Shown here: positions 12,842 through 43,325 of the stretch, piece by piece
Numbering within the stretch: the stretch's first letter is position 1
Layout of the letters: the number at the start of each line of letters is the position of its first letter
DNA from: an uncultured Gammaproteobacteria bacterium
GTDB lineage: Bacteria; Pseudomonadota; Gammaproteobacteria; UBA6002
NCBI GenBank assembly: GCA_963705725.1
Contig: CAVPKM010000007.1
Span: 64,001-128,000 of the forward strand
DNA: 64,000 nucleotides
Direction: 5' to 3'
Translations under genes and position numbers: made by a program
Notes under the pieces: model-generated
What the model was told of the DNA's origin: nothing
Seen by the model: only the letters and a program-made list of their open reading frames with translations
Databases searched by the model: none

Positions 12842-13350
12842 AAAATAAGCTAACCTTAATTTTTCACATTGCTTTTTTTAAAAAATCTGCCACTATAGGA
12901 CACACGAGCGGGAAATTCCCGCCCGTGCGGAACCACTAAGGTGTTAGCGCGCCTAAGGGGTTCTAGCCACAAATTAACCTAACAACACGAGGTTAACTCA
13001 TGACTAACACTAGAATATCACCTATTTGCGCAAACGCGCAAAGTCCTTTTTCTTATTCCTCCCATTTTTTGCCAAACACAAAAGCAAATTCTACCCGTAA
13101 ACCCTCGGTTAGCCGTGAGCATTTGTGGCCGGCGACAGTTTGCTTAGTTTGGCAAGAGGGGTGGATGTTCTCAAGTAACAGGACAATATTCTAAGCAGAG
13201 GGGGATTGATGGCGGGTTGGCTTACTTCCCGCCTTCAATTTTTGAACACAAACCATTGTGCTCAACCTCTCTGCTGTGTTCAGACCTGTAGATAGGTTTT
13301 GCACTGCATTAAGGAAAATCTATGCAGTCGCCTTCAATTCGAAGCGAAAT
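12842..13350 (+). ncRNA. Structured ~500-nt leader element, copy 1 (orphan; ends after the first codons MQSPSI)
   Basis: Colinear with 19445-19947; conserved promoter-like start, several hairpins with compensatory changes, embedded 64-codon ORF 13000-13194. Confidence 0.55.
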
Positions 13351-14174
13351 TTCCAATCTTGAGGAAGTGCTATAGATGAAGAGGAAATCATTCAGTTATT
13401 CAAGAATCAATCAACAATTGATCCCTATACCAATAAAGTTGTAAAAGCGAAATCTGAATGTGAAGGTCGTCCCATAACACTGTTTGGTTTTCCTAACAGA
13501 GAGCGTGCGGCAAGAATTGAACTTAAATGGCACAAAAAAGTCATCCATAAGTTTTTTAGAGTGGGTGAGCCCTTAGCAGAAGGAAAACAATCAACACCAT
13601 TTTTAATATGGTTAACAACTGTATTGAACAAAAGCATCAAAACCCCATTCCTATCCAAGGCTACTCTAGGCGCAGCTTTATTATTGCGAGTCTAAAATTC
13701 TTACGCATTATGGCGATATGCCAGAATTAATTTTCATGTTGGGGATGACTAAAATTAAACTACTCGAGTAAATTCCGTGACGCAAAGGCAGAAGGGGATT
13801 TAAAATGAGGGCTCCCAATTATGGACATTGCATATGGTGAGGATGTATTAATAGGCTTTCGAACTTTATCATGCCTAAAAGGGATAGAAATCCAGATAAC
13901 CCGCAAGTGCGCTATAAAAAATTTCTTGAGATTTTTAAAGAACGATTAGCTACGATGGAGCCTTTTAGCCATTTGGATTTGAACAAATATGGAAATATCC
14001 TGATTGGTGTAGAGCCGGAGGCAAATGAATCTGATGAAAAAACACAAAACAACCTTCATCTGTTAAGGAGCATTATAATCAATCAGGTTTTTCTAACCTG
14101 ATAAGATTTGAATTTGTGAGCCATTATATTTCCTTCTAACTAGATAGTTGTGAATAGTGAAAAACATGAACGAA

Positions 14175-14637
14175 TTTTTTGCTACTCTCCTGAAATTTGT
14201 CGCGCGATTTATACTACGAATGCAGTTGAATCCGTGAATATGAGTCTTCGGAAGGTCATTAAAAGTAAGCGCGTTTTTCCTTCGGATGATGCCGCTTTGA
14301 AGCAGCTATATTTAGCGTTTAAAAATATTTCAAAAAAATGGACAATGCCAATACGAAATTGGGGTGATGCCATGAATCGTTTTATGATTCTGTTCGAAGG
14401 CAGGCTAAAAGGGGCGATTTAGTTTAAGAACTGATTTAAAATTTTGTGCCTTCGATCGCCTGTGGATATATGCACAAACTGACTCGTTGCACTCGTCAGT
14501 ATTGCGCACATACCCACAGGCACAATAATTTTATTTGTTTATTTAAAAAATTTTTGTTATTTTAATTTCGCTATCTGGAATTCGGTAGCAAAAAATCTGC
14601 TGACTCAACCTGCTTACACAAAATTATTTACGCTACC
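14175..14637 (+). mobile_element. IS256 3' fragment including the right IR
   Basis: Near-identical to ~3550-4013. Confidence 0.92.
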
Positions 14638-14669
14638 AATATTATTTCTATAAAAATTAAAGAGTTATC

Positions 14670-19007: not shown

Positions 19008-19406
19008 TCAATCAGATACCATAGATGGATGATGAGTAAATTCAACCTCATTGCCTGAGGGATCAAGGATACTAAAAGCTTTTGTTCCAATGCCAAACGT
19101 CTTAGGTTCATCCAGAATTATAACAGGGTATTGTTTGATATATTGATACCAGGCATCCACATCCTGTGGGCAGCTAATGGCAAAACCAAAGTGCTCGAGT
19201 CTTTGAGGTTGAGCAAAATTTGCAGTGTCACCTTGATGCAAAGAAATGTTATCTTCGCTGGAGGTTAAATAGGCATAATCGTTTGTTTCATGCTCGAGCG
19301 TCATTCCAATGATATTTGTATAAAAATCAATGCATTCCTGTAGATTATTGACGCGCAGTGCAATGTGTCTAAGCCCTCTCATTTTTGGCTTTGTATTTGC
19401 ATTCAT
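19008..19406 (-). CDS. VOC/glyoxalase-family protein
   Basis: LRHIALRV...FYTNIIG, HFGF, DPSGNEVEF. Confidence 0.9.
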   Translation of the reverse strand: MNANTKPKMRGLRHIALRVNNLQECIDFYTNIIGMTLEHETNDYAYLTSSEDNISLHQGDTANFAQPQRLEHFGFAISCPQDVDAWYQYIKQYPVIILDEPKTFGIGTKAFSILDPSGNEVEFTHHPSMVSD

Positions 19407-19444
19407 TGCTTAATCCTTTCTCTTGAGTAATGAGAAGGCAGGAA

Positions 19445-19925
19445 AAAATAATCTCCTCTTAATTTTTCAGATTGCTTTTTTTAAAAAATCTGCCACTATA
19501 AACACACGGACGGGGAAACCCCCGCCCGTGCGGAACCACGAAGGTGTTAGAGCACCCAAGGGTTCTAGCCACAAACTAACCTAACAACACGAGGTTAACT
19601 CATGACTAGCATTAGGATATCACCTACTTGCGCCAACACGCAAAGTCCTTTTTCTTATTCCTCCCATTTTTTGCCCAATACAAAAGCCAATTGCACCCGT
19701 AAACCCTCGGTTAGCCGTGAGCAGTTGTGGCCGGAAGCAATTTGCTTGGTTCGGCAAGCGGGAGGGAGATTCCCGAGAATTAGGACAATATTCTAAGCAG
19801 AGGGGGTTGATGGCGGGCTGAATTGTCACCCGCCTTCAATTTTGAACACAACAACTTGTGCTCAACCTCTCTGCTGTGTCCCAACCCTTTAGATAGGTTG
19901 TGCACTGCGTATAAGGAAAATCTTT
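19445..19925 (+). ncRNA. Structured ~500-nt leader element, copy 2, upstream of the CDPS operon
   Basis: Same architecture as copy 1; embedded 64-codon ORF 19602-19796; ends in an AAGGA RBS for ORF 19926. Confidence 0.6.
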
Positions 19926-20357
19926 ATGCAGTCACCTGCCATTCAATTTGATGCTGCCCCTTGGCCGCTTAAGCCTAATGAAATTATGCAGCTCTCATCA
20001 TTCATTGCCATTGTGCTGCGCCATTTTCGCCAATGTGCTTCTTCCTGTGAAGCGAGCTATTTATCTCAGTTACAAGTCATTTCAGACTGTCATTACTTAG
20101 TTCATTTAGCACAGCAGGAAGATAGCCTCTTTTCCAGGCCTCTCTCGCTTGAGCAGATTTCAAGCGTTGCGCTTAATCTGGCAGAAGCCATCAATACCCT
20201 TAGCGATAAAATCCGGTTAATGGATTCTCCCTGGTTTTATGCGGATTTTTACTCAAGCGTCAATTATCTCTTAAGCGATAAGTTTGGTTACTTAAGTCAA
20301 GACTTCACGCTCATCAAGCAACTGCGAAAAAAAATTAATCGGGTTAAAGGAGAATAG
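19926..20357 (+). CDS. Hypothetical helical protein, first gene of the CDPS operon
   Basis: AAGGA RBS; stop 2 nt before the CDPS start; no family recognised. Confidence 0.7.
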   Translation: MQSPAIQFDAAPWPLKPNEIMQLSSFIAIVLRHFRQCASSCEASYLSQLQVISDCHYLVHLAQQEDSLFSRPLSLEQISSVALNLAEAINTLSDKIRLMDSPWFYADFYSSVNYLLSDKFGYLSQDFTLIKQLRKKINRVKGE

Positions 20358-20359
20358 GC

Positions 20360-21079
20360 ATGGAAACAACCCATACAGAGATCTGTCGTCCCCTTAAAGC
20401 AAGCTTTGCAGGAGCCAAAGCTTTTCGCCACCATTTCAGCCGGGCAACTGCCCAGCTCACCATCAGCATTGGCCAAGCGGTGCACGAAGGAGAGCGCTTA
20501 GCCGCTACCTTAGCGCTCATCAATCGCTCCTTTGCCAGTTGTAAGGTGATGATCGATGATAGTATTCAATGGTATACCTTAGCGATTAACGCGCCGGAAC
20601 AATCCTCCTCCCTCTTACTCCAAAACGCAATTGCAGCAGGGGATCACTACCTGAATACCACCTCAGCACTCTTTCAGTCATCACTCACCATTCCTTATGA
20701 AATTGTCCGCTGGAAAGATTGGCACGGCCTGCCCAGTTGGCAAACGGCGGTGGCCTTGATGCATCAAGACTATGAGGAAAATACGCTCCTTCGCAGCGAA
20801 ATTCAAAAAAACATCACGACCTTTCTAGATCGCTATGAGAAGCGGGGAACGGATAAGACCTATGATCGATCTCGCGCCTGGCGACTCTGCCTTCATTACT
20901 TATTAGAAGAATGTGCGGTGATGCGTACCTTTTGGGTGGAACTGGGTTGTCATTATGAGGTGTATCCGAGTGGTCGCAATGAAGCGATGCGCGCCACCTA
21001 TGAGCATTATATTCAGCCTTATCATCCGCATTTATTAACATCGATTGCGCTGCGTTTTCATCGACTCGGCAGGGAATAA
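20360..21079 (+). CDS. tRNA-dependent cyclodipeptide synthase (CDPS), XYP subfamily
   Basis: ISIGQAVHEGE (catalytic Ser), DDSIQ, RWKDW, YLLEECA (Tyr/Glu), EVYP (XYP signature); 239 aa is typical CDPS size. Confidence 0.82.
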   Translation: METTHTEICRPLKASFAGAKAFRHHFSRATAQLTISIGQAVHEGERLAATLALINRSFASCKVMIDDSIQWYTLAINAPEQSSSLLLQNAIAAGDHYLNTTSALFQSSLTIPYEIVRWKDWHGLPSWQTAVALMHQDYEENTLLRSEIQKNITTFLDRYEKRGTDKTYDRSRAWRLCLHYLLEECAVMRTFWVELGCHYEVYPSGRNEAMRATYEHYIQPYHPHLLTSIALRFHRLGRE

Positions 21080-21084
21080 AAGGA

Positions 21085-22722
21085 GTGGCGATGAACCCCA
21101 CGAAAAGAGTAGCAGCAGGCAAGCAAGCGGTGAATTGTCAACTGGTGCTAGAAAGTTTACTGCGACATTTACCCGGTCATGTCTATTGGAAAAATACAGA
21201 TGGGATTTATCTTGGTTGTAATGATCGTCAAGCACAAAGTTTAGGTCTGACTTTAGGCCGTGAAGTAATCGGTAAAACCGATTTTGAGCTCCCTTGGCAG
21301 GCAGAATTAGCAGCGCATTTTTGGGAAAATGATCGCCAAGTGTTAGTGAGCGGCTTATCAAAAACGGTAGAAGAAATGGCGGTGATAGATGGGAAGGCAG
21401 CCATGGTGTGGAGCATCAAGGTTCCCTTAAAAACCGATCAAGGTCAAATGGTCGGGGTGCTGGGGATTTCCATTGATATCACGGCGCAAAAAAAGGCAGA
21501 AGCCAAATTAATCCAAGCTAAGGAGAATGTGGAAGCGGCCTATTTGACTAAAACCCGATTTTTAGAAAACCTGCGTCATGATATTCGCACCCCGATCAGC
21601 GGGATGCGTGGCTGCATCCAGTTGTTGCAAGACTGCTTAGAGGAAAAAAATCCAGAAATAAAGCAAGCCAAAGAGTATTTGCAGGATGTAGATAGTTCGA
21701 GTAGCGAGCTCTTAAGCTTATTAAATAAGGTGACGATGAGCACTCAAGCCATGGATGGGGTGTCTGCGCTTAAAAAGCAGCGCGTTAATCTAAAGTGTCA
21801 ACTGCTTTCTCTATTAAAGCTCAATCAAGCACGAGCAAAAGAAAAAGGACTGAAGTTAGCGCTGAAATATGATGAATCGATTCCCTTATTAATTGGGGAT
21901 GGCGAGCGTATTGAGCAAATTCTGGTAGAGTTAATGAGCAATGCCTTAAATTTTACGGATAAGGGCGGCATTACCCTCACCGCTCAGCTTGCAAAGCAAG
22001 CAGGAGAGCGGGTCATTATTAAAATGATGGTTCAAGATACCGGAATTGGCATGACCCTTGAAAAGCAGCAAGCCCTATTTACGCGCTTACCACATTTATC
22101 TGCTGCTTATTCAGGCTTATCACGTGGGATGGGCCTAGGATTAGCCTTAATCAAACAAATCATCGATGAACTGGAGGGAGAGATTTATGTCGACAGTTGT
22201 CCAAAAAAAGGCACGACTTATACCTGTATCTTGCCGCTACAAGTTGCATTATTAAATGAGCAGGAACTGCAGCTGAATAAAAAAGCAGGCAATACGATTT
22301 CGCTCACTATGGCTGCAAAAGCACAGCCATTTTCTTCCCCAAAGGCGAGTGCAATTCGGGTATTGTTAGTGGAAGATGACCTGATCGCCCGGAAAGTGAG
22401 CGCGGTCTTGCTCACCAAGCTTGGATGTCAGGTCAGCCTAGCTGAAACGGTGGCTTCTGCTCTTGAAAAAATTAAATCGGAAAGTTATGAATTAGTTTTT
22501 ATGGACATTGGGTTACCAGATGGCAGTGGGATAGAGGTAGCAAAAGTAGCGAGGCGAAATAAGGCCAGTCAAAATCAAGCCACACCCATTATTGCGGTGT
22601 CGGCCCATGTTGATGAGGCAGGCAAAGCCGCTTGTCATCTTGCGGGGATGGATATCGTGCTTGCTAAGCCCTTATCGGAGGAAAAGGTGCGAGCTATATT
22701 GGCGCTTTTTGTTCGGAAATGA
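21085..22722 (+). CDS. Cytoplasmic hybrid sensor kinase PAS-HisKA-HATPase-REC
   Basis: PAS LPGHVYWKNTDGIYLGCN...GKTDF; H-box RHDIRTP; NALNFT, DTGIG, GLGL; receiver VEDD/MDIGLPDG/AKP; no TM segment. Confidence 0.93.
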   Translation: MAMNPTKRVAAGKQAVNCQLVLESLLRHLPGHVYWKNTDGIYLGCNDRQAQSLGLTLGREVIGKTDFELPWQAELAAHFWENDRQVLVSGLSKTVEEMAVIDGKAAMVWSIKVPLKTDQGQMVGVLGISIDITAQKKAEAKLIQAKENVEAAYLTKTRFLENLRHDIRTPISGMRGCIQLLQDCLEEKNPEIKQAKEYLQDVDSSSSELLSLLNKVTMSTQAMDGVSALKKQRVNLKCQLLSLLKLNQARAKEKGLKLALKYDESIPLLIGDGERIEQILVELMSNALNFTDKGGITLTAQLAKQAGERVIIKMMVQDTGIGMTLEKQQALFTRLPHLSAAYSGLSRGMGLGLALIKQIIDELEGEIYVDSCPKKGTTYTCILPLQVALLNEQELQLNKKAGNTISLTMAAKAQPFSSPKASAIRVLLVEDDLIARKVSAVLLTKLGCQVSLAETVASALEKIKSESYELVFMDIGLPDGSGIEVAKVARRNKASQNQATPIIAVSAHVDEAGKAACHLAGMDIVLAKPLSEEKVRAILALFVRK

Positions 22723-22933
22723 ATAAAGCAGAATATTGAATATCAGAAATGGCTTACAAATTTATTCGAACATTTTCTACATACAGCAGGATAAATTTTT
22801 TATTATGGTGGCAGAATAAGAGGTCAAACATGAATATTTTTAAAGGATTGATCTGACTGCTTAATGGACCCTATTCTCCTTGCCTCCTGAGTTTTATCTC
22901 GCAATTAACACATAAATCACATTAAGGTCTGAC

Positions 22934-25900
22934 ATGCAATACAAGCAGCAAGCGTATCCCTTTAGTTTAATTTCAAGTAAGGGATTAGGAAAAACCTACT
23001 CGTCCTTCGATAAAATTGGACCGCTTCTGCCGATGAAAGGATTTGGCGCGGCAGGATTAACATTTTATCCGAATGTGGCAATAGGGAACTTATTTTTTCA
23101 AGACCATATGCTAAAAATTGAAGAGCAGGGCGGGATCCTTGAGCTTGGGTTTATTTACAATAGTCAAGCAGCAAGCGTGGATCCGGTTTGGCAGTTTGCG
23201 CATCCTAAATTTTATTTGTTATCGCGTTATTCTCAGCAAGTAGTGCTTTCTGAAGCAGATGGCTATCGTACAATCTATACGTTAGATCTCAAAAGCGGTT
23301 TTTTTTATAGTGAGACAGGCTCAAGAAAGGGAATCGCTTGGCTTTATTATCAGGAAGCCAATCAGCAATGGGTGCATTATCGACCTTTTGATCAAGTGAC
23401 GGAATATTTTAATGCGGAAGGATTGCTAGTAAAGCGTGAAACGAAAGCCGGTAACATCACAATCTATTATTATGATGCGTATTTACGCTTAAAAGAAATC
23501 ATTGGTGCAAGTGGTAACCGGTATAAATTTCACTATCAAGAAAATACACTTTCTCTTTATTTAGTGACGCTTGATTCCTCCGAGCAATTGTTGCAATCCT
23601 ATTTGTTTGATCTTGAGGGAAGACTTACCTTAAGCCAAACGCCGGATGGGTATCAAACCCAGTATTTTTACAGTGAAGTGTCTGCTCGGCAATTATTGGC
23701 GGTGAAACAATCTGACCAAACGATGTTAGGTTTTGGTTATGATCATTCCAATCGATTAGTGGAATGTTGTTTAGGCGATGCCTCCACGTTTACTTTGCAG
23801 TATCCAAATGAAACACAGCCGGATTTTTTGTTCAGCGATCCTGTTGGTGGCACGACCTCACTCAAGCTAAATGACCAGGTAGCTATCATTGAAATTGCGC
23901 GATCTCAAGGTATCGGTGCTGATTTTAAGGAAAAATTGATTACCGCCTATCATTACAATGCGCTGACACAACTGACGCTTATCCTTCATCCTAACCAGGG
24001 CCAGGAAGGCTTAAGTTATACCGATCGCTTTGGGTTGGTGCGCCTGAACGAAGGGCCAAATGGGCAAATGGTCGAGCAGGTCTATGAAGAAGAAGCGATG
24101 GCTGTTCGTTTGGTTGCTGACATTCAGTATGAAACGGTTCATGGCAGAAAAAATACGCTTTTAGCGACTTATTATGTTTATGACACCGATTTTAATCATC
24201 AATATACTTTTTTACGATTTAAGATTAACCCCTTAGGCAACGTGACGGAATATCGTCCGGATCGATGTGGCAATATTGCATCTGAACGAACCTATTTGGG
24301 CGGGATTTTTGATCGAAATCAGCGAGATCCCCGCCAGGCGCCGACTTTATCAGAGATAAAAGCTTGGGTGAGCCTGCAAGATGCCGCTAAGGTGAATTTA
24401 GTTGCCTATGAATATAATCTGAGAGGGCAATGGCAACATTACTGTCAATACGCTGAGGTCGATCAAGCAGGAAAGGGGAAACTCGATGAAGCCATGGGTC
24501 AGATTTATACCTTTCGAACGCTGTATGGGGAACCTTTTTTTAAGCAGGTGAAACAAAATAATATTCAGGCAGCAGTGACCCGGCAGCGCTTTGATGCGCT
24601 AGAGCGCCTGCTGAGTAGGACCGATGCCCTTAATCAAACCACGACGGATGACTATTTTGATGCTAAAGGCCAGGTAAAAATCATTTATCCGAATGGGAAA
24701 ATTGAGATTCGGCAACAAGATGCGAGAGGAAATGGCGTTTCCCTGCAAGAGATCGTAGCGGAACAAGAGAGACTCACGCAGTATCGGCGAGATGCAAACG
24801 GGCGGGTGGTATTAACGACCAGGCCCGATGGGGAGTTTCTTTATACTTTTTTTGATCATCAAGATCGCCTCAAGTTTTGTGTCACAGCGCTTGGAATCGT
24901 CACCCAGCAGGTTTATGCGGTTAAAAACCGTTTTGTTTCGACCACCGTTTATGCCAAGTGCATTGATACTCGGCAATTATGGCCGAGTGATCCGCCACCA
25001 CCTGGCTCCCTGCCGCAAGTTGATCGCTTGATCGCCTTATTGCCGGGTATTGCGGATGAGAGTATTGATCAAACACATTATACCTTTTTTGATTTTTCTG
25101 ATCGCCCGATTTATGAGGTGGATGAGGAAGGGTATGTCACGCAATTTCAGTACAATGCGCGCAATCAAAAGCGGGTTGAGATTGCGTATGCCAACCCTTT
25201 AGAGGATGAGCAGTTAGCGGAGTTAAAAGCAGGAAAGACACTTGCTCTTCCCATTGATTTCAATCAAGACCGAGTAAAACGGGATTTCTATGATAATAGT
25301 GGCGCGCTAATTGGTGAGCAGAATAGCGCAGGTTATGTGACTGAGTATGTGTTAGATGGGGCAGGAAATACGAAAGAATGCATTCGATATCACACCCCGA
25401 TGCCGCTTGATTTAGCACTACGCGATTTTGATCAAGTGCGGCCAAATGCTGCTTTACTCGATGCGCATACCTATTATTTTCGCAATAGCAAAGGAGCGCT
25501 GGTCGGACAATTCGATCCCGCAGATAGATGGGGAGAATATTATTATACGGCGCATCACGCTTACCCCAATGGCTTAATCCAAAAAAGTATTCGATATAGC
25601 ACTAAGGTGAGTTTTCCTCTGCTTCTGCCCCCTCCAGCCAATCCCGAAGCCGATGAAATCACTCTCTATCGCTATGATCTATTAGGTAGGCTTTTAGAGA
25701 CCGTTTTTCCGAATCAGAAAAAAGACCGTCTTCAATATAATGTGTCGGGTAACGTGATTTCAGCTAAATCTCAGGATTTACACTTTCCTGACTTGATGGA
25801 TCCTGATCATCAGCGAGCCAGGCATGCGCATTACGATGCTTGGGGCCAAAAAGTTAAGGAAACGAATGAGTTTGATGGGGAAATCTTCCATCATTATGAC

Positions 25901-27538
25901 CCGATAACCGGGCTGAAAACCCATACCACGGATGCCCTAAATCGGACCACGTATTATTTTTATGATCTTGATCAACGGTGGGTGGCCTCAGTCAATCCGG
26001 TAGGGGCAGTAGTGAAATACGAGCGGGATGCGTTTGGGGAGCGAATTAAAACGATTCGTTATGCCACGCCTGCTAAGGGAATCCCTACAGGGGGTTACCT
26101 CACGCCAGAGATTGAGAAACACTTTATTGCGGATCCTGAAAAAGACCAAGTGGTGTTATTCAAACGCAATCGTTTGAGCCAAGTTGTAGAGCAAATCGAT
26201 GCGAAAGGCAACATGAGCACGTTTAAGCATAATGGCTTTAAGCAAGTAGTGGAAAAAAATTTACCGGTAGCAGGTCCCCATCCGACGTTGAGGTTATCCC
26301 ACGAATTTGAAGTGCGTGGATTAGCGATTAACACGCGGATTGAAGCACTGGATACCCCGGTTGAGCACATTGAGCGGGCTTATGCGAATTTTTATGGCAA
26401 AGAGACTTATAAAAAAGATGCGCGTGGCGGGGTTTATCGTACGTTTTATGGTTGTCGCGGTTTAGTGAGTCAAAAAATTCAAGAAAGCGGCGCTGGCGAG
26501 GCGAGTCATTTTTTCACTTATAATGCGTTTGAAGCGTTGGCTACTGAAACCGATGCGTTGAATCAGACTACCACCTATCACTACAATCATCTGGCCCGTC
26601 AACATACTCTGCATTTCCCGGTTCATGGTGTCACGCAAACCCTTATCCACAATATTTTTGATGAAAAAATTCAGGAAACGGACAGTTTGGGCAATCGCCA
26701 ACGCTTCGAGCATGCAGCAAATGGTCAAGTGCAGATTGATGAAGATCCACTGGGACACATCACGCGTAGCGAGTTTGACCTGATGGGGCAGCTCGAGAGC
26801 AAGATTGATGCTAAGGGAGTGGAAACAAGGTTTAAATACAATGAAGCGGGGGATCTATTATTCCAAATTGAAGATGCGGCGGGCTTAGGGCTTCAAACCC
26901 ACTATCAACGCGATGTGTTTGGCAATGCGCTGCAAATCACGAATCCCCGTCAAGTCGTCACGCAAAATACCTATGACCAAACAAACTGCTTAACTTCAAG
27001 CGTGCTGGATGCGATTGATTCCGGTTTAAATTTAACGATTCATCCCACTTACAATGCAATGGGAAAGGAAGAGGGCAAGCAGCAAGGCGATAAGGTTAAC
27101 CCTTTGCAGTATGAAGAAAAATATCCTCTCGATGGCCGTGGTCGACAGATCGGTAAAACCCTCGATCCAACTGGCTTAGCGCTCGCTGCTCACCAGCACT
27201 TGAATGCAGCAGGAGACGTTATTGCTGAAGTGGATTTCAATGGCAATGTGACGCGCAAATTTTATGATGATTTCGGGCAGCTTCGTTTTGTGGTGGACCC
27301 AGAAGGTGGGGTGACTGAGACAAATTATGATCTTGTGAATCGAATCCATTATACGCGTCTTTATGAAAAAAGCATTAATCCGGATCAACTGACCGATCAA
27401 ACCGATCTTCACACCTTGTTAGGGTTAGTCGAGGTAGATTCGCAAGATAGCATCCTGTTTTATTTTTATGATGCAGATGGGTTAGCGCGGTTTGAAGTCA
27501 ACGGGTTAGGAGTAGTGGCGGAAGGTGCTACGACCTAG
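22934..27538 (+). CDS. RHS/YD-repeat toxin, N-terminal part (frameshifted from the next ORF)
   Basis: NVAIGNL...YNSQ RHS-type N-terminus and dozens of YD repeats; the frame continues as RCYDLARRRIKTIHYATP after a 1-nt slip at ~27523. Confidence 0.9.
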   Translation: MQYKQQAYPFSLISSKGLGKTYSSFDKIGPLLPMKGFGAAGLTFYPNVAIGNLFFQDHMLKIEEQGGILELGFIYNSQAASVDPVWQFAHPKFYLLSRYSQQVVLSEADGYRTIYTLDLKSGFFYSETGSRKGIAWLYYQEANQQWVHYRPFDQVTEYFNAEGLLVKRETKAGNITIYYYDAYLRLKEIIGASGNRYKFHYQENTLSLYLVTLDSSEQLLQSYLFDLEGRLTLSQTPDGYQTQYFYSEVSARQLLAVKQSDQTMLGFGYDHSNRLVECCLGDASTFTLQYPNETQPDFLFSDPVGGTTSLKLNDQVAIIEIARSQGIGADFKEKLITAYHYNALTQLTLILHPNQGQEGLSYTDRFGLVRLNEGPNGQMVEQVYEEEAMAVRLVADIQYETVHGRKNTLLATYYVYDTDFNHQYTFLRFKINPLGNVTEYRPDRCGNIASERTYLGGIFDRNQRDPRQAPTLSEIKAWVSLQDAAKVNLVAYEYNLRGQWQHYCQYAEVDQAGKGKLDEAMGQIYTFRTLYGEPFFKQVKQNNIQAAVTRQRFDALERLLSRTDALNQTTTDDYFDAKGQVKIIYPNGKIEIRQQDARGNGVSLQEIVAEQERLTQYRRDANGRVVLTTRPDGEFLYTFFDHQDRLKFCVTALGIVTQQVYAVKNRFVSTTVYAKCIDTRQLWPSDPPPPGSLPQVDRLIALLPGIADESIDQTHYTFFDFSDRPIYEVDEEGYVTQFQYNARNQKRVEIAYANPLEDEQLAELKAGKTLALPIDFNQDRVKRDFYDNSGALIGEQNSAGYVTEYVLDGAGNTKECIRYHTPMPLDLALRDFDQVRPNAALLDAHTYYFRNSKGALVGQFDPADRWGEYYYTAHHAYPNGLIQKSIRYSTKVSFPLLLPPPANPEADEITLYRYDLLGRLLETVFPNQKKDRLQYNVSGNVISAKSQDLHFPDLMDPDHQRARHAHYDAWGQKVKETNEFDGEIFHHYDPITGLKTHTTDALNRTTYYFYDLDQRWVASVNPVGAVVKYERDAFGERIKTIRYATPAKGIPTGGYLTPEIEKHFIADPEKDQVVLFKRNRLSQVVEQIDAKGNMSTFKHNGFKQVVEKNLPVAGPHPTLRLSHEFEVRGLAINTRIEALDTPVEHIERAYANFYGKETYKKDARGGVYRTFYGCRGLVSQKIQESGAGEASHFFTYNAFEALATETDALNQTTTYHYNHLARQHTLHFPVHGVTQTLIHNIFDEKIQETDSLGNRQRFEHAANGQVQIDEDPLGHITRSEFDLMGQLESKIDAKGVETRFKYNEAGDLLFQIEDAAGLGLQTHYQRDVFGNALQITNPRQVVTQNTYDQTNCLTSSVLDAIDSGLNLTIHPTYNAMGKEEGKQQGDKVNPLQYEEKYPLDGRGRQIGKTLDPTGLALAAHQHLNAAGDVIAEVDFNGNVTRKFYDDFGQLRFVVDPEGGVTETNYDLVNRIHYTRLYEKSINPDQLTDQTDLHTLLGLVEVDSQDSILFYFYDADGLARFEVNGLGVVAEGATT

Positions 27539-27591: not shown

Positions 27592-30500
27592 TTGCCGGTC
27601 CTAACCACGGCCGCACTGAGCAGGCTGGTCAAACTGGAAGAAAAAAATCCCAAAAACCGCATCTCATATTTTATTTTAGATGCAAAAGGCCAGCAGCGAT
27701 TTTGCATTGATGCTGAACATTATCTCTCTGAACAGCGCTATGATGCCAATGGAAATGGGATTGCCAACATTGCCTATGCGCATCGCCTTGCTGATCCAGA
27801 GAAAATTGCTCGACTCGCGCCACTTGAGGTATTAAAAAATATCACGCTCGATCCTTTACTCGATCGCACCAGCTATCAGGTTTTTGATCACGTAAACCGA
27901 CCGGCATTTCGTGTGGATGGGGAAGGGGCGGTCACACAATATTTTCATGATGAAAATGGAAATCTTATTCAAACGTGTCAATATGCAACCAAAATTGCGG
28001 TGCCAAGTGAGTACCAAGACTTAGTGATTCGATTAAGGCAATTGACACCGAGTCCCCAGATTGATCGCATTAATGAATACAGATTTGACCACGCCGATCG
28101 TCAAATTGGCGAAAAAGATCCCTTGGGTTATGTGGATGAATTTAGAAAAGATGCGGTAGGAAACACGATTTTGCATCGTGATCGTGCAGGCAATGATTGG
28201 GGATATCAGCATGATGGGGCCAATCGCTTAACCCTTGAAACGCTGCCAAAGGTGGGTGTGACCGCTATGACAAAAAAGATCGCGCATAACCAGGTGACAT
28301 TGTCTGACCAAACCCGCGACATGGCCATTGAAAATAAAAAAATTTTAGATGCCAATGGCAATGAAACACAAATCATCCGAGCGGCGAATACGGATGCCCC
28401 AAGAATTCTCCACTGTACTTACAATAAGCGCCGTCAACTTGTTGGAACGCGCATGAATCAAGTGCTGATTGATGATGAAACGAAAGCCCCAAGCTTTGAT
28501 TTCCCGCCGGTTAAAGTCGTCGATCTCACTACCCAGATTGTTTATAACGCAAAAAAATTAAAAGTTTGTCAGCAGGATGAATCCGGCAATTGGTCTTTTT
28601 TTGTTTATGATTGTGAAGGCAATTTATGTGATGAGGTCGATCCCCTTGGCGCGGTCAAGCAGTATGAATACAGTGCCTTTGGAGAGGTGATCCACGAAAG
28701 GGCCTTTGCCACTCCCATTCAGTTAGATTTAGCGCTTTTTACGCAAACCGGTATTCCGCTTTCAGTGATTCAAGCACCCGGCGTGATCGAACCCAGCCTT
28801 GATGATCGTCTAAAAACCTATGTGCGGGATAATCGTGGTGATATTATCTTAATTGAACAAGGTCCCACCTTCTATTATTTGCCAAACGGCAGCGATCAGC
28901 CGAGCTATCAATTGGGATATTCTCAAGTGAAGTCGCATTATAATGCCTTTCGAGAATGCGTGCACCAAGGTGTGTTAATCGATCCGAAAGCCGATACTTG
29001 GACACAACGGCTTGAGTGGTTTGATCGAAATGGTAAGCAGGTAGCCAAATGTGATCCCGAGTTTAGGGTGGTCCGCATCCGCTTTGATGCATTTAGCAAT
29101 GCTATTCAAAAAATGGAATGGGCAAATCCACCAAAAATGCTGCCAACTAGGCTCACCCCTTTACTCGAACTAGACCACAGTCATGTTCCTTCTCTAGCGG
29201 ATCGCCATTTTATTTTTGATTATGACTTGGCGGGGCAGTGTATTCAAAAAACCACCAAACAAGTGATCGTGCAGCAGATTCGTTTTGGGGTCAATAATAT
29301 TCCCGCTATGGAAAACAAACCCGCTCAAGATTTGATCCAACAATACCAATATAATCCCTTAAGAAAACAAATTCGCCTCACCTATGAAGACGGCTCAACA
29401 GCTTTCACCTATTACAATGCGTTAAGCTTAGTCATCGCGAGAACGGGTTGCCCGCGCGAAACCCTGTTTGCTACGACACTGATTCCGTTAAGTTATTTTG
29501 GCTATGATGCGTTTTTGCAGCAAGTGATGACGACGCGCTTTAAAAAAGGGACAGCGGCAGCCAACTTGGATTCGTTGCCTGTGCCAATTAAGCGAGATAA
29601 CGGCGATCAAACGGAGTTAACCTACCTGGATTCTCGCGGTCGTGTAATTTATGCACAAGATGCAGCCGGTGAGGTTGAGGGCTTTACCTATAATGCGATG
29701 GCGAAGGTTGCCCTGCAGTGCTGGCGCTTGACGAACACGGTCAATGGAGTGGTGGTGCACTTGGATGCCAAACGCTTTCATTATGATGCGATAAATCACG
29801 TGATCCGTCTTTTTTTGCTTCGTGATAATCAAGCAATACAAATGACCGCTTACCAATGGAATCTTTTTGGCAACTGCATAGCAGAAGGACCGGGTAACCC
29901 TAGCTGCCCCCTCATTCGCCGCTTTGATGGTCTGAATCACCCTTGGTTTGATAATGAAGGCGGCCTCGACAAAATCACGCTCAGAAATTTATCAGGGGAA
30001 GTGACCGTGCGGTTAACCTCACCGACCAAAGATTTAAGACAGGTGACTTATGATGCGTTGCCCACTGTCCTCACTTGGACCCACTTAGACTTACTGCGAG
30101 AAGAAACCGTTCGCGATCGATTGGGACGCAAGATTTTGAGCACGAAGCCAGCTTATAGCCGGCCCGATACCCGCCATCCCATTGATATTCCCTTAAGTCT
30201 TGCTGTGGGCAAACAGTATCCAGCATTCGGCGAGGTGAGCTTAAGTTGGATTGTCCCACAAGAAAAGACGGTGGTGCTAGAGTGTTTCCTCTGGCCTTTT
30301 GGCCATCCTGAACAAAAGCAAGCCTTGCCTATTCAGACAATAAATGGGCGTTGTGGCTTGGGGGTTTCACACTTATTGGATCGTTATCGGTATCAAATTA
30401 ATTATTATTTTATCAATCCCCTCACCAAACAGCTTGAGGCAACCCCGATGTTTCAAACAGAAGGGGAAGTGCAGATTGTGGGGAATTCGCTCAATCCATG

Positions 30501-33500
30501 TTTCAACCTCCTGGTCACCGTCGAAAAGGAAAATCAGCTGATATTATCGGGGAATACAGAAGGGATAGAATCGATCTCGCTCTGGCAGGATAATCAAGAA
30601 ATTGCAAAGATCCCCGTGCAAGTTCAGCAAGATAAGCGGTGGGTTAATTTAAGTGCTTACCCTTCCGGTTGTTATACCTTACTCCCTTTAAAAAAGGACA
30701 ATGTCGCCTTACCTGAAAGCTTGCCCTTTACTATTTATACGACAACACCGTCAAAGGTGCCGCTTGCAAAAGAAATTCAAGCAAGTTTTAGCTTATCGTT
30801 TTTAGCGCAAAATGGGTACCATGGGCAGCTAGGTTGGCAAGTATCTGATTATGCAGCAAGCCCGATCGTGATGACCTGTCATTACTTAGATCAAGAAGAT
30901 CAAAGGCGCATTCATGAAGACACGATTTTTCCGGGTACAGATAAAGGCCAGTATACCGACAGCCGAGGAAACACCTTAATTTGCAATACGGAATTTGCCT
31001 ATCCTGTTCAGGCAGTGTTGGCTCTTTCTTTATCGATTCAATTGGATGAAGACGATTTAGTGCCAATTGCGGCTTATGCCCAACCGAGCGCCGCAGCAGG
31101 GGATGGCACAAATGTCATTCTAGCCAGTTATTTTCCCGGAACCACGGTTCTTTATATTGCGCCGCTAAGCGGGTTTGATCGGCTGCCCACGTTATCGTAT
31201 TTGGATAGGACATTGGATCGCTTAGCCGATTGGAAGCCCTTGCCGGCGATGGGGATGACGCGAAGCGGTATTATTGTGGACGTGTCCGATTTCTTGCCTT
31301 GTGTGTATCCGTTTAAATTAGCAGATTCCCTTAGCTTTCTGCCGGATTTTGGGCAGGGAGCGGCCTATTTCGCCAACCTGCCCGATAATTCGACTTCGCT
31401 TACTTTAACAGAAGTCATTCCCTTCGCACTCCCTTATCGAGAAGAAAATTTTCGGTTGTTTTTTACCGATCGGACATCGGTCGTTGATGTATTAATGCAG
31501 CATCAAACAAATGAGACGATAAGAAAGCAGTTAGCTCCCGAAATCTTAGAAGCCTTAATTCAGGCATCCTTTACTCTGGGGAAAGCAGCAGAGCTTAATC
31601 TGAAAAATCCCTCGCTTGAATTTTGCGCTAAGCAGGAAGTCTTTGAACGTTACCTGCATTTCTTAAAGGAAAAAGGCGAACTGGGTTGGATCGCGGCGTT
31701 GATTTATGCCAAATCGCAAGACATGAGCGTTTATTTTTGGGAAAAATCGCTGGATAAGCCAGGATCACTTCACTTAGTTGGGTTTCATGACGCAGGTCAA
31801 CTGGCGAAAAAAACCTTATATTTTATGGTCTCAGGCTATACCCAATTTCATGTATTCTTACCAGAAGGAATAGGTTTAGCAGACCGCTATTCCCTCAATC
31901 CCACTTATTCTTTTACGGTATCCAAGGGCAGTCAACTTTATCCCAGTAGTCCTTTGCCGGCACCTGAACCTATTCATGTGTTGCCGAGTCAGCATTTTGA
32001 TTATGATCATTGGCACAACCTCACCCAGTTTGTCGATACGCTGGGTCATCCTATTGATTATACCCATAACCATCTCAATCAGCGCCTCACACAACGTGAT
32101 CCCGAAGTGTACATTGTTGAGCCAACCGGACAGCTTACCTTAGGTCGCCCACTGACGTTATGGGGTTATAACGAGCGAGGCTTTAAAGTGGGGATGACCA
32201 ATCCCAATGGCGATACTCAAGCCTTCCTTTGTAATGCCGGTAGCGAGGAAATCTATTGGATACTTGAAAATGGCGGCGTTGGCCGCAGGCAACAGTTTAA
32301 CGCCTTAGGGCAGCGCGACAGTCACTGGGATGAGAAAAATCATCGCTGGCAGTATGAACATAATCCCCATAATCGTGTGACAAAAATTATTTATCCTTCA
32401 GGAAAATTCCAGGAGTTTGCCTATAACGAATGCAATTGGCGTTGTTTAGACACAGATTTTGACGGCACAACAACGGGTTACAACCAGGATTTGCTGGGCA
32501 ATGTCACCGATCGGCGGGAGCCTTCTAGCTATGTGACAAGCATGAATTATGATCGAAACGGCGAATTATTAGGGGTGCAGAATCCCGATGGCAGTCAGCT
32601 CAGGTGGGTGCGCAATTACTTTGGTCGTGTGGATCGAGAGTTTGATTTAGCAGGTGTCCAAACGGTGCATATTTATAATTTAGCCAATCAAGAGATTAGA
32701 AGATATTCAGATAGCAGGCGATTAAACCACCGCGCCTCCGTGCTGGCTTTCCCTGATCCCACGCTCCCCACTCTCCTCAACTATGATATTGTGCTGTCAA
32801 AGGTTTATACTCAAGACCTTCACTTCCAGTACCTGGGTGGCCAGTTGATGCAGGTGTATGACAGAAGCCTGCAAACGCTCACGAAGTATACGCGCGATAC
32901 CGAAGGGCAGGAGCAATCGGTTTGGCTTTATAACCAAGGCAGTCTCGTCAGGCAAGTCACGACTATTCTGGATGGGATGAGGCGTGAAGCTTGGACAGCT
33001 GATTCTGACTTAGTGGTCGCCACGCGCTATGACGCCGCTAGTAATCGCCGGCACATTACCACAACAGGCATTAACAGCCTTCCCCCACAAGACCTATGGT
33101 ATTTTTACGATGCAACCGGTCATGTGATCTATGACGGCGCAACCGGCCTACAATTAGTTTATGAAGCCGGATTTCGGACACGAGAAATCAACGGAAAGGG
33201 GCTGTTTCGAACGCTTAATTATAATGCCGATGGCATTTTTAACCGAGCCATTTACCACCAACTTGGCCGAGTGTCTGTGACGACTGATCGCTACTATCAA
33301 GTGAATGGCTTGTTAACGCGTTATACCGAAGCAGATGCTCGAGGTATTTACTACGATCACCACATCGCCACTTACCCCGGCAGTCACTGGCAGTATAGTG
33401 ACCTGCAAGTGCTAGATGGCAAACTGCAAAGCTATACGATGTATGGCGGATTCACTCCAATTGGCTTGCCCACCACTCAGCGTACGGACTATGAGTCGAT

Positions 33501-36393: not shown

Positions 36394-37901
36394 TCGGAAT
36401 TTTTTTAATGCGAGCGGCGAGATGATCGCGAGCCTCATTAACGACATTACCAACCCGAATGCAGCAGTCATGGATCACTATTTTGCCCACTGCGAGAATC
36501 GCTTTAAGAGTGTTTTCCGCCACCCCAACCGCCTGAGCAGTGATTTAGCCGATGGCGCATCAGAGAGAAGGGCATTTGAAAAAGCCGCTAGAGCCCCACA
36601 TCTTTTATTGCCCGATTTTGCGATGACCTATCCGGCGGCGGTGCCACAAAAATACACTGTCTCACCCGGGGATCATTTTAAGCAGATTGCACAAAAGTTT
36701 TATGGAGATGAAGGCTTTGCTGGCGTGGTGGCACAAATGAATGGCTATGCGTTAACCGATCCTTTAGTGGTGGGACAAATTTTAATTCTGCCGCAGTACT
36801 TACCAAGTACCAATCATGCAGGAAATGTGACGCCCTACGAGCAATTTATGCAGATCATGATCGGCAGGCTATCCCCCCATCTTAACTTAACGCTATCGCA
36901 CCATCATGGATTCGTGGAAGTGGTACATGGGATAGTCGAGAGTGTGGCCTTGATTGCAGGGGTAGTGATCTCTGCCTTCGTGCCAGTTTTTGCCCCGCTG
37001 ACGGTAGCAGTCTTCAGTGCGTTAGTAGAAGCAGCCTATCAGGGCGTAGCGGTAGCCACACACTTACAGGCACAGTTTAGTTTAGCGCAAGTGATCACAG
37101 TGGGATTAGAGGCAGGGATAAGCGCGGGCATATTAGGGGCCGGTCAAGCAGGATTAAGCACTTGGATGCAAAACCTTGCCAGTCAATCGCTACAAACGGT
37201 AATTAAACAAACAGCTCAAATTGGAGTCATGAATCAATTCACCGAAATGATGACAGGCCTTCGCCACCAGTTTGATTTTGGCGCAGTAGTGGGAGAAGTG
37301 GTGAGCACGGCCATGTTGCATCAAGTTAGCCCACAAGCCCAGGCGATATTTAAGGAATCGCCTTTTGTGGGTAACGTTGTACAAAATGAAGCACGAAGCT
37401 TGGTGGGGAACGGCATCCGTGCGGTGATTGATCGCCAAGAGTCAGGGCTAGATCTGAAGCAGATTACCCTGACTGCATTAGGGACAACGCTGAGTCAGGC
37501 GATTAACACGAAGTTAGAGCAAGAAGCATTAATGGCAGAATATGAGCGAGTCAGGCAGGAAAGCCTCGCGGCCTCCAGAAATGCGAGGCTTCATTCTCAC
37601 GCAACACAATTGATCAATCACGAAACCAAGCTAGCGGAAATAACCATAGCTTTTTTGCGAGTAATAACAATAATAGGAATAAAGCCGCCGGCGCTTCGCA
37701 GCCGCACTTTTTTACTTCAACCCAAACGACAAAAACAGAACAAGCCAATGCTAAAAAAACGAATTGGTTGTTCGATAGGTTTGATCAGCTCCAAGAAGCA
37801 AAAAACACCTCATCATCATTTAGTCATTCCATGACGCCCCTAAATGAAATCCTGGAGCACAATCCAAATCTTAAGATTGTTGCTCGCGGGCCAGCGGGTG
37901 T
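36394..37901 (+). repeat. ~1.5 kb direct repeat, copy 2
   Basis: Offset 2590 changes to 2589 after a 1-bp deletion (CACGCTAACA to CACGCAACA) near 37602. Confidence 0.95.
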
Positions 37902-38565
37902 AGAATTATATGATAAAGCAAGCGGCCAATATTTTACTTATGATATTGCTCGAGGCATTCACCAAACTGAAAGAGGAATTGAACCTGCTTATCCTGATAA
38001 ATTGGTAATGCGTAAATCCTATGCAGTTATAAAACTTCTTGAGAGAGTAATTCAGCTTGAAAGAGGTGGCACATTTGAGCCATTTGGCGCAAAGAGCCTA
38101 AAAAATTTAGCATTACGATCGCATGTGCTTGCTAATATATCAGAGAGTCAGGTTGCACGAGCTGGTAGCTTTTTTAAGATTCATTCCTATGTTGAACAAG
38201 CTTTATTTAAATTAGATGTGAATACTGAATTAGATTCAGCAACTTTTTGGTCTGGTAAAGATAATCAGCAACGTGCTACTAGCTTTGCGACAAATATGCA
38301 TAAAAAAACATTAGAGATGACGACAGGAGGAGAATATTTGGATTCTCTAGATTTGTTTAAGAAATCTGCTTATGAGCAAGCAGTAAAACCTTGGGATGCT
38401 TTATCAAAAAGATTTGCAGAAAATGCTTCTGGTGATGTTTATGCATTTGTGGAGGGAACGCGTCCTACAAGTGTATTTAACCGAATAGAATATCTAATCT
38501 TAATTGAGAATCCTAAAGTAAATGAAATAGTTCATTCATCAAATGGCATTATATTCAGACCTTAG
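36422..38565 (+). pseudogene. Orphan toxin module: duplicated LysM/linker plus ADP-ribosyl-cyclase (CD38/ARC)-like tip, frameshifted
   Basis: ORFs 36422-37834 and 37768-38565 join across the 1-bp deletion; tip motifs FWSG, TLEMT, WDALSKRFAENASGDV, SVFNRIE. Confidence 0.75.
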
Positions 38566-41024: not shown

Positions 41025-41630
41025 ATGAACAAATTAACGAGCAGAAATGATAGCAATCCTCCTTTGTATAAAGATTGGAGTACCTGGTTAGAGGCAAGCT
41101 TAGATGGTACGGCAAGGACTGCCAAACACATGTCACCCCTATATCAAATAATGCAGGAGACTTATCATGATGCAGCAATGCTTAGTATCAATCGCGCAAT
41201 TGAAATGGCAAGGATGAGCCATGAAGTTTCTCATGAGATGTCATACTGGAATGCGAGAAGAAATATGGCAGTGAGGTCTGCTAATTTTAATTTAATTCAA
41301 TCAGAACGATATGGGCGATTTTGGTCGGTTACTGATAAACTAAAGCATTTAGGTAAAGTATCCACTGCGCTTGATGTGGGGCTTAGAGCAGAAAAAATTA
41401 TTAAGGCTGCTCCCGATCAGCGCGGTCGAGTGGCTTTTGAGCAAAGTGCGACTTTTGTATTAGAAAATATTGTTGATGTGGGAGTTGCTTCTGCTGTCGA
41501 GAGTACTACAGGAGGTTTAGGAATATTAATACTAATTCCAGCGCTGGCTATAGTAAATCATGTTATTGATCAATCTCAATTGGTCAAAAAATATAGCGAT
41601 ATTACTTATAATATGTTCATTGGAAAATGA
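41025..41630 (+). CDS. Orphan toxin tip A with C-terminal hydrophobic hairpin (pore-former-like)
   Basis: LKHLGKVSTALDVG...RGRVAFEQ followed by GGLGILILIPALAIV. Confidence 0.55.
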   Translation: MNKLTSRNDSNPPLYKDWSTWLEASLDGTARTAKHMSPLYQIMQETYHDAAMLSINRAIEMARMSHEVSHEMSYWNARRNMAVRSANFNLIQSERYGRFWSVTDKLKHLGKVSTALDVGLRAEKIIKAAPDQRGRVAFEQSATFVLENIVDVGVASAVESTTGGLGILILIPALAIVNHVIDQSQLVKKYSDITYNMFIGK

Positions 41631-41641
41631 TTGGGGGTTAG

Positions 41642-42052
41642 ATGATAGATTATGATTCATTATTATCAAATGAAGTTGTATTTTATGTAATAACAGCTTC
41701 TCTTTGTATCACTATATTTGATTGTCTTTTTTTATTGCCAATGATTTTTAATTTTAAGATTATTCCAGGTATTGAGAAAAAAATAAAAAAAAAATTAAAA
41801 TTTACTTTTATTTCCTATGAAATGTTTTTTTTCCGTGATTATTTTGCTAGATATTGTGAAATATCATTATATATTCTTATGAAGTACCTGAGAATTTCAA
41901 AAAAAATGAATTCTAGATGTGCTTTAGTAAAGGCTGAATACCATCGTGAGCTATTTTCAAAATTTGAAATATTTTGGAGCTTTTTTTCGCTATTTAATTA
42001 TCTAATATTTTTTGCTTGCCTATTTATAATTACACATGGCTTTTCAGGATAA
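41642..42052 (+). CDS. Membrane immunity-like paralogue 2
   Basis: IIPGIEKK...RYCEI...RELFS-x-x-EIFWSF family motif; three hydrophobic segments. Confidence 0.7.
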   Translation: MIDYDSLLSNEVVFYVITASLCITIFDCLFLLPMIFNFKIIPGIEKKIKKKLKFTFISYEMFFFRDYFARYCEISLYILMKYLRISKKMNSRCALVKAEYHRELFSKFEIFWSFFSLFNYLIFFACLFIITHGFSG

Positions 42053-42080
42053 TATATGGCCAGTGGCTTTTGATGCTAGG

Positions 42081-42135
42081 GGTGAGTAGACCAGTGCATT
42101 TCAGCCCTAGCTCCTCGCAGGACAGTGCATGAACC
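42081..42135 (-). mobile_element. Possible group II intron 3'-end remnant (part of DV plus DVI)
   Basis: Reverse complement GGTTCATGCACTGTCCTGCGAGGAGCTAGGGCTGAAATGCACTGGTCTACTCACC resembles intron 3' ends; GC-rich patch in AT-rich DNA. Confidence 0.35.
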
Positions 42136-42762: not shown

Positions 42763-42780
42763 CGCATCACCCCTAATAAA

Positions 42781-43324: not shown

Positions 43325-43325
43325 A

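Follow-up and report, generated by a model that had tools for sequence, protein, structure and literature searches.

A cyclodipeptide synthase beside a soluble hybrid kinase with a VqmA-like PAS domain: a candidate make-and-sense pair in an uncultured gammaproteobacterium

The synthase and kinase genes of the window

The window analysed here is a stretch of 64,000 nt (positions 64,001 to 128,000, forward strand, of contig CAVPKM010000007.1, GenBank assembly GCA_963705725.1) from an uncultured gammaproteobacterium of the lineage UBA6002, the genome of which is represented by a 1.58-Mb assembly that is 92% complete. The subject is a block of three genes coded on its forward strand: orf143 (19926-20357), a gene for a cyclodipeptide synthase (CDPS) of 239 aa (20360-21079), and a gene for a hybrid histidine kinase of 545 aa when counted from a GTG codon (21085-22722). 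A conserved leader (19431-19925) precedes the block, and an open reading frame (ORF) with RHS repeats starts behind it at 22934. The gap between orf143 and the CDPS gene is 2 nt, and that between the CDPS and kinase genes is 5 nt when measured to the GTG. An ATG at 21091 is the likelier start of the kinase because AAGGAG precedes it by 5 nt; from that ATG the gap is 11 nt. The CDPS ATG has AAAGGAG 9 nt upstream, and Shine-Dalgarno-like sequences are thus present before both the second and the third gene of the block. Co-transcription of all three genes from the leader is predicted. An earlier reading of the window made without database searches (the sequence-only reading) had placed the three ORFs 2 and 5 nt apart, exactly as the ORF calls did. 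It had also described the block as visibly more GC-rich than its flanks, which holds for the upstream side only: G+C content is 0.43-0.49 in the block and 0.32-0.39 upstream of it, but the RHS genes downstream are equally GC-rich (0.44-0.49). Contigs of the genome have 0.375-0.414. No tailoring enzyme was recognised in the three genes by Pfam and NCBIfam scans, in agreement with the same reading.

The product of the middle gene has no family match in Pfam, and its score with NCBIfam TIGR04539 is 28.4 bits, under the 45-bit cut-off. When compared with solved CDPS structures in phmmer, it matched 5OCD with an E-value of 7.2e-55 and 5MLQ and 9I5M with E-values of about 1e-22, over residues 12-235, which make up the whole Rossmann-like domain. 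The catalytic Ser36, Tyr180, Glu184, and Tyr202-Pro203 are invariant across 24 sequences (alignment A1), and Gln39 is the X of the X-Y-P signature. The catalytic set of XYP enzymes, in AlbC numbering, is Ser, Tyr178, Glu182, and Tyr202, with Pro after Tyr202. These structure matches and invariant residues bear out the earlier assignment of the ORF to the XYP subfamily of CDPSs, and formation of a cyclodipeptide from two aminoacyl-tRNAs is predicted for it. In the phmmer alignment, its catalytic residues correspond to S34/Y172/E176/Y194 of Nbra-CDPS, whose roles are described in the available text of PMC13062777.

Structure 5OCD is that of Fdum-CDPS from Fluoribacter dumoffii, which is said to use two Gly-tRNAs (PMC12945691, available text). 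The stretch YPSGRN is identical in Fdum-CDPS and in the window enzyme, while the residue two positions before the catalytic Ser is Pro in the former and Thr in the latter. A small dipeptide product is likely for the window CDPS, but unproven. The enzyme sits in a sister clade of the characterised XYP enzymes, with motifs LTISxGQ and DDSIQWYTL. Fdum-CDPS (5OCD), Nbra-CDPS (5MLQ), and Rgry-CDPS belong to the same family and have the same catalytic residues; two of these three are of Legionellales origin according to the texts covered, and in those texts the characterised XYP CDPSs are studied as isolated enzymes, with neither a biological role nor a kinase partner given. In the clusters for albonoursin, pulcherriminic acid, and mycocyclosin, the CDPS is the scaffold-forming enzyme, as here. 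Unlike in those clusters, where tailoring enzymes accompany it, the CDPS of the window clade has no conserved oxidase, P450, methyltransferase, or dedicated exporter alongside, and its sole conserved partner is a sensor kinase.

Four Pfam domains, all over the cut-off, were identified in the kinase: PAS_4 (residues 26-136), HisKA (residues 156-216; 21550-21732), HATPase_c (residues 271-386; 21895-22242), and Response_reg (residues 426-539; 22360-22701). The kinase core of HisKA and HATPase_c thus spans 21550-22242, and the last domain is a receiver. The putative phosphorylation sites are His165 in HDIRTP, which is almost invariant in the kinase alignment A4, and Asp474 in FMDIGLPD. No membrane segment was found in the protein, as the highest mean Kyte-Doolittle value over 19 residues is 1.25. 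The domains and the absence of a hydrophobic segment confirm the soluble PAS-HisKA-HATPase-REC architecture proposed from the sequence. An Hpt domain was not detected in the window kinase by Pfam and is present in two of its relatives (L024 and L032).

Conservation of the pair and the VqmA-like sensing domain

The surroundings of CDPS genes were surveyed in species-representative genomes. The survey comprised 79 loci from 63 assemblies (counted by contig prefix) of Legionella, Fluoribacter, Tatlockia, Coxiellaceae, and other, mostly Legionellales-like metagenome-assembled genomes, together with a few loci labelled Rickettsiaceae, Francisellaceae, Burkholderiales, Neisseriaceae, or Bacteroides. 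A homologue of the PAS kinase lies within 1.5 kb of the CDPS gene at 76 of the 79 loci, and the adjacency noticed in the window is therefore conserved elsewhere. At these 76 loci the kinase gene is downstream on the same strand in 50 cases, convergent in 19 (the Legionella/Fluoribacter clade), and divergent in 7. Of the three loci without a nearby kinase, two have a flank of just 335 nt or 1 nt on the side in question. As a background, another kinase match more than 4.5 kb away was found at 3 of the 79 loci, in far flanks totalling 153.7 kb. Apart from close synteny within Legionella, the 79 loci have no further gene family in common; the vicinity includes a C39-ABC exporter at 5, an XRE-type regulator at 6, and a protein with no known function at 7 of them.

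Several genomes have more than one pair. In sister genome G002, a homologous kinase gene comes straight after every one of the five full CDPS genes, and one of these kinase genes is broken; the five modules have diverged from one another, as have the four in one other assembly. The pair is also present in a genome of another family (G038). A second CDPS of the window genome, 31% identical to the first, is coded at position 41343 of contig C10 and is followed by a PAS kinase (G000:C10:41343-45483; locus L018:9299-13475), split by an IS66-family transposase and two small accessory ORFs. The p-ren plasmid of Ca. Endohaliclona renieramycinifaciens carries a CDPS homologue, annotated as hypothetical, 37 nt before a gene annotated as 'putative sensor histidine kinase', the product of which is 34% identical to the window kinase; this pair lies beside the renieramycin genes. 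On this plasmid of 33 kb with 16 annotated features (L122; MK748464.1, 1-10234 reversed), the CDPS homologue and a kinase with tandem PAS domains adjoin the RenA gene.

At four of the 79 loci (L076, L077, L094, and L097), CDPS, PAS, HisKA, and HATPase, in some cases also REC, are fused in a single ORF of 595-867 residues. In L094, residues 22-225 match 5OCD with an E-value of 1.6e-47, and the remainder matches kinases. A search among longer proteins gave a 436-aa protein of CDPS and PAS_4 and also the 767-aa fusion. Three of the fusions at the surveyed loci form one clade in both the CDPS and the kinase tree and L097 stands apart in both, so at least two fusion events took place. These natural fusions, with a linker of about 15-20 residues, together with the tight packing of the window genes (gaps of 2 to 11 nt), could also speak for direct coupling of the proteins, in which the CDPS, separate or fused, would be an input domain of the kinase and its tRNA loading or acyl-enzyme state would be passed on by contact, with no free messenger. 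To this explanation we give little credence. The kinase gene is convergent or divergent at the 19 and 7 loci mentioned above, so co-translation is not required, and an invariant Lys at the position that contacts the ligand in VqmA argues for a small-molecule pocket. In a complex prediction, the CDPS (alignment A1) and the PAS part of the kinase (alignment A4, residues 1-150) scored 0.00 against a mark of 0.32, which is evidence neither way.

The putative sensing domain of the kinase (residues 15-145; 21127-21519) is a VqmA-like PAS domain. When a profile of 25 CDPS-linked PAS domains (A5) was searched against solved structures, VqmA (6UGL, 6KJU, 6IDE) gave the top matches with an E-value of 1.3e-14, followed by BvgS with 1.2e-8; the window domain alone matched VqmA with an E-value of 9e-10. 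The AlphaFold2 model of the domain has a pLDDT of 94.2, and the top six matches of this model in the PDB by Foldseek were all VqmA chains (TM 0.80-0.81, rmsd 2.1-2.4 Å, 29-30% identity). A phage VqmA in complex with its ligand was also among the matches, and BvgS and LOV domains were further matches of the fold. By sequence and by modelled fold, VqmA is thus the nearest solved relative of the domain.

The ligand of VqmA is the autoinducer DPO, 3,5-dimethylpyrazin-2-ol, which is bound by stacking of F67 and F99 and by a hydrogen bond from K101 to the ligand carbonyl; binding is abolished in F67A and K101R, and F99 contributes to it (bioRxiv 10.1101/2019.12.19.881847, available text). The equivalent residues of the kinase were read from the sequence alignment of the window PAS domain with VqmA, and their conservation was counted in the 25 CDPS-linked domains. 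K101 corresponds to Lys112 (K in 25 of 25), F67 to Phe79 (F in 11 of 25, with L, I, V, or Y in the remainder), F99 to Ser110 (S in 23 of 25), and D85 to Glu97 (E in 25 of 25). Of the contacts F67, F99, and K101, two are therefore kept in the window kinase, as Phe79 and Lys112. A spacing-restricted motif around the Lys, G[CAS]N...xxKxP, was present in 66 of 72 adjacent kinase ORFs; the six misses are two ORFs that lack a full PAS domain and four with the Lys motif at another spacing. Lys112, Phe79, and Ser110 mark a likely ligand pocket, to which binding is predicted.

The DPO-VqmA quorum-sensing system of Vibrio cholerae (6UGL, 6IDE, 6KJU) relies on a cytoplasmic ligand-binding PAS domain of the same subtype as that of the window kinase, and DPO, its ligand, is an amino-acid-derived N-heterocycle with a small six-membered ring. 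Conservation extends to the counterpart of Lys101 and, in the clade of the window kinase, to that of Phe67. A small diketopiperazine resembles DPO in size and shape, and Ser in place of one stacking Phe would be in keeping with a ring that is non-aromatic and carries amide groups. The output of VqmA is a LuxR-type DNA-binding domain, whereas that of the window protein is a kinase core with a receiver; the PAS domain would thus work like the VqmA sensor, and the whole protein is not a VqmA orthologue. DPO is made via threonine dehydrogenase and not by a CDPS, and its synthase gene is not known to lie beside that of VqmA.

PAS domains have many ligands, and the matches to BvgS and LOV domains fit an explanation of another kind, that the kinase senses a different cue (redox, oxygen, or a host metabolite) and switches CDPS expression through a phosphorelay, so that the cyclodipeptide would be an output, host-directed or antimicrobial for instance, and not the ligand. 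Regulators often adjoin the genes of their pathway, the pair of Ca. Endohaliclona lies beside the renieramycin genes, and a role of CDPSs of intracellular bacteria in host manipulation was suggested by Aravind's group (PMC2922099, available text). A hybrid kinase without an adjacent DNA-binding partner would be an unusual pathway-specific regulator, and transcriptional control offers no ready account of the fusion of enzyme and sensor seen at four of the 79 loci. Moreover, VqmA, the solved structure closest to the PAS domain, binds a ring similar in size to a small diketopiperazine, a six-membered N-heterocycle, and the Lys that contacts it is invariant. We consider regulation of this kind unlikely.

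A possible signalling route and what weighs against it

The adjacency at 76 of 79 loci, the four fusions, and the VqmA-type PAS domain with its conserved Lys make a synthase and its cognate sensor the best reading of the pair, as the sequence-only reading had proposed. It is rather probable that what the kinase senses is made by its CDPS and that the two form a make-and-sense signalling module. Two aminoacyl-tRNAs would be used by the CDPS for a small cyclodipeptide (2,5-diketopiperazine), which would bind to the VqmA-like PAS domain of the kinase encoded immediately downstream or fused. Binding would alter autophosphorylation at His165 and transfer to Asp474, and the phosphoryl group could pass to the sole stand-alone Hpt protein of the genome (contig C4) and then to its sole receiver-LuxR-type regulator (contig C18). 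The identity of the ligand with the CDPS product, the direction of its effect on the kinase, and the Hpt and regulator partners are all inferred here.

Such a short route is proposed because the two-component inventory of the window genome is tiny. Besides the window kinase, its copy on contig C10 (99%), and one more intact hybrid kinase, searches with PF02518 and PF00072 among others gave the IS66-broken kinase beside the second CDPS, the Hpt protein, two single receivers, and one REC-GerE regulator, that of C18. Only three intact histidine kinases were thus found in the 1.58-Mb genome. Two of them are of the type described here, and the insertion sequence has broken a third of the type; the module therefore probably ranks among the main sensory inputs of the organism.

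Several observations weigh against this picture. Adjacent and fused genes are what one would likewise expect of a kinase that does no more than regulate the synthase or contact it directly. At the locus of Legionella tucsonensis (L046), there is no such kinase within 6 kb of the CDPS. The product of the CDPS cannot be predicted with confidence, many PAS domains bind unrelated ligands, and the pocket must differ from that of VqmA because the second stacking residue, F99, is replaced by Ser. A terminator-like hairpin stands between the leader ORF and orf143, and transcription of the three genes from the leader is unproven; for 19400-23000 no RNA run was listed, and the one run that was, of soil-metagenome DNA, held a fraction of 0.06 of the words. 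Distances in the CDPS and kinase trees are correlated (Mantel r=0.53 for 51 pairs, a value reached in 0 of 999 permutations), but the agreement is partial and some clades disagree, and it is not taken as proof of co-evolution because shared species history confounds it.

If the kinase does sense the cyclodipeptide, the signal could act between cells or within the cell. A PAS receptor located in the cytoplasm is compatible with quorum sensing, as the case of VqmA makes clear. Sensing of the cell's own product or of its metabolism accounts for the fusions and the cytoplasmic sensor no less well than the diffusible density signal of the sequence-only reading. Together with the lack of an exporter conserved at the surveyed CDPS loci and the intracellular lifestyle of many carriers, the fusions fit self-sensing, and they argue for at least some of it. 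More specifically, the module might be an intracellular gauge of charged tRNA, in which the cyclodipeptide would be a second messenger reporting the supply of two aminoacyl-tRNAs and the kinase would read it into a very small phosphorelay; this is a tentative idea with a modest chance of being right. In that case, genomes with several modules, such as G002 with its five, would track several amino acids separately, and intracellular bacteria dependent on amino acids could time their differentiation by a device that complements the sensing of uncharged tRNA in the stringent response.

Known pairs of a signal synthase beside a sensor kinase are CqsA/CqsS of Vibrio and LqsA/LqsS of Legionella, in which the kinase feeds a phosphorelay. 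CqsA and LqsA are PLP-dependent and make alpha-hydroxyketones, and CqsS and LqsS are membrane proteins not known to have a PAS domain. The window pair differs from them by its tRNA-dependent synthase, its soluble sensor, and the possibility of fusion. The association of CDPSs with PAS domains is not new. Of the non-biosynthetic Pfam domains found no more than 2.5 kb from a CDPS, PAS is one of the most frequent according to Skinnider et al. 2018 (PMC5767969), who suggested that CDPS products may be quorum-sensing metabolites in the manner of the Vibrio system. Legionella XYP enzymes and their products are listed by Gondry et al. 2018 (PMC5816076), and the word kinase does not occur in the text covered. 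The association and the quorum-sensing guess were therefore already in print in 2018, in a single sentence. No account of a CDPS-kinase pairing, of fused forms, or of a VqmA-like domain next to a CDPS turned up in the literature listings and the texts covered. Work on CDPSs from Legionella-like and other intracellular bacteria has dealt with them as enzymes. Diketopiperazines have a long history as proposed bacterial signals, for which there was no dedicated pair of synthase and receptor to name. A candidate receptor can now be named, with a likely pocket placed at Lys112, Phe79, and Ser110, and its pairing with the synthase is widespread and sometimes fused.

The leader, orf143, and the RHS genes

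The leader (19431-19925) is a GC-rich multi-copy element of about 360 nt that appears to be confined to the genus. It has a promoter-like TTGCTT (19472-19477) and TATAAA (19497-19502), conserved among its copies, then hairpins at the 5' end, a small ORF, and a terminator-like hairpin. RNAalifold gave 51 pairs, 18 of them with compensatory changes; in Rfam there was no match at the gathering thresholds, only chance-level ones with E-values of 0.08-0.7. The small ORF (19602-19796, 64 codons, preceded by GAGG) is open in all 17 copies examined, in which it has 59-75 codons and the same ATG and stop context. It shows a weak excess of third-position changes, with 33, 27, and 40 variable sites at the three positions; in 23 codons all changes are synonymous, and in 55 the residue is changed. 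The ORF has no Pfam family. The hairpin at 19812-19843 (GGCGGG..CCCGCC, then TTCAATTTT) was read from the sequence and is terminator- or attenuator-like. Its stem is retained in other copies through changes on both sides, and it is absent from the listing of a consensus terminator scan. As a guess, the element may be a translated leader with an attenuator that is shared by different cargo genes.

Three copies were found in the window genome: that before orf143, an orphaned copy at 12842-13340 (86% identical), and one on contig C10 (G000:C10:2232-2719, minus strand; 94%). Behind the orphaned copy, at 13340-14650, are the first few codons of orf143 and then about 1.3 kb without an ORF of at least 100 codons, which may be decayed DNA. 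Sister genome G001 has one copy (L115:2016-2396, minus strand), and G002 has it at about 20 places, for example at L021:5527-5888, L110:1433-1795, and L124:1504-1886. By BLAST, none was found in G003 (77% complete) and G004 (97% complete). The nhmmer profiles detected it upstream of all five CDPS genes of G002; the leader and the motifs of its small ORF were not found at CDPS loci of other genera by these profiles, with which remote copies there may be missed.

The leader cargo in G002 comprises the five CDPS-kinase pairs, four methyltransferase-PAS-kinase pairs, and about nine genes of the carbamoyltransferase family. In the four methyltransferase pairs (L103:1818-3092, L124:2019-3386, L125:2017-3385, and L131:1919-3340), the leader is followed by a SAM-dependent methyltransferase gene (254-274 aa by ORF call) that overlaps the kinase start by 4 nt, and the PAS domain of the kinase is VqmA-like (WWKD..YLGCN..TNKSP). 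These four pairs behind the same leader suggest a general enzyme-plus-sensor design in the genus. At L105, L107, L108, L110-L113, L126-L130, and L132, the leader precedes a 349-aa gene of the aspartate/ornithine carbamoyltransferase family in copies 96.6-100% identical; no kinase stands beside these genes in G002, and no such gene was found in the window genome.

The first gene of the block, orf143, encodes a small all-helical protein of an uncharacterised family, with 13 representatives at E-values up to 1e-3 among 1.84 billion proteins. His33, Cys55, and Pro102-Trp103 are invariant in the family, and the predicted model has six helices with a pLDDT of 81.6. Sequence searches gave no match in Pfam or the PDB, Foldseek gave none in the PDB at an E-value of 0.001 or lower, and there was no Atlas match. 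A hidden Hpt domain was ruled out, with an hhalign probability of 0.6%. No homologue of orf143 occurs at the 79 CDPS loci, and its inclusion in a conserved module with CDPS and kinase is therefore not supported. In sister genome G001 (L115:974-2396, minus strand), a copy of the leader is followed by an orf143 homologue of 151 aa and, with a 4-nt overlap, by a 171-aa receiver protein, the receiver domain of which is 47% identical to that of the window kinase. Neither CDPS nor kinase core is present at this locus, and no CDPS match was found in the G001 genome (87% complete). The arrangement hints that the orf143 family may work with the receiver type of the window kinase.

The window module is part of a unit of 3.4 kb that was duplicated on contig C10. 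The unit spans 19431-22796 and ends 74 nt after the kinase gene (22723-22796), where similarity stops before the RHS gene; in blastn, 21019-22796 is 99.2% identical to C10:2060-283. In this second copy (G000:C10:283-2718, minus strand; locus L019), the leader is 94% identical and the kinase is intact at 99.4%. Deletion of what is 20096-21018 in the window has produced a 109-codon ORF in which codons 1-61 of orf143 are fused to the last 19 codons of the CDPS gene, and a gene for a single receiver lies just upstream. The copy may code for an orphan receptor, or it may be strain variation within the assembly. A short segment of 92 nt spanning the end of the kinase gene (22705-22796) recurs with 90% identity on contig C11 (G000:C11:4878-4967, as C11:4967-4878).

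The sequence-only reading had further assigned to the module control of the RHS toxin, whose ORF it correctly placed about 210 nt downstream on the same strand (211 nt past the end of the kinase). The module would then time expression or delivery of the toxin. Common strand, the short gap, the shared raised G+C content, and the lack of a terminator-like site after the kinase in the terminator scan are in keeping with such a circuit, and the pair of Ca. Endohaliclona beside a cytotoxin gene cluster is a loose parallel. Yet no match of the RHS gene was found within 6 kb at any of the 79 CDPS loci, none adjoins the five G002 modules, and the C10 duplicate, which ends 74 nt past the kinase, has no RHS gene in it. 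Control of the toxin by the module is accordingly not upheld and appears very improbable.

The RHS repeats are coded by two ORFs in different frames (22934-27538 and 27592-36000), both of which are open across 27493-27538; the pair resembles a single gene of about 4,350 codons that a frame change or an assembly error has broken in two. A stretch of the second one (33804-35408) is found again, 98% identical, at 36394-37997, where it has a different tip and resembles an orphan C-terminal cassette; each of these two stretches has a LysM-like segment just under the cut-off. Past these cassettes, a run of eight ORFs of 136-201 codons lies on one strand at 41025-45473. No Pfam family was found in the seven of them that were scanned, and the eight are possible candidates for immunity genes.

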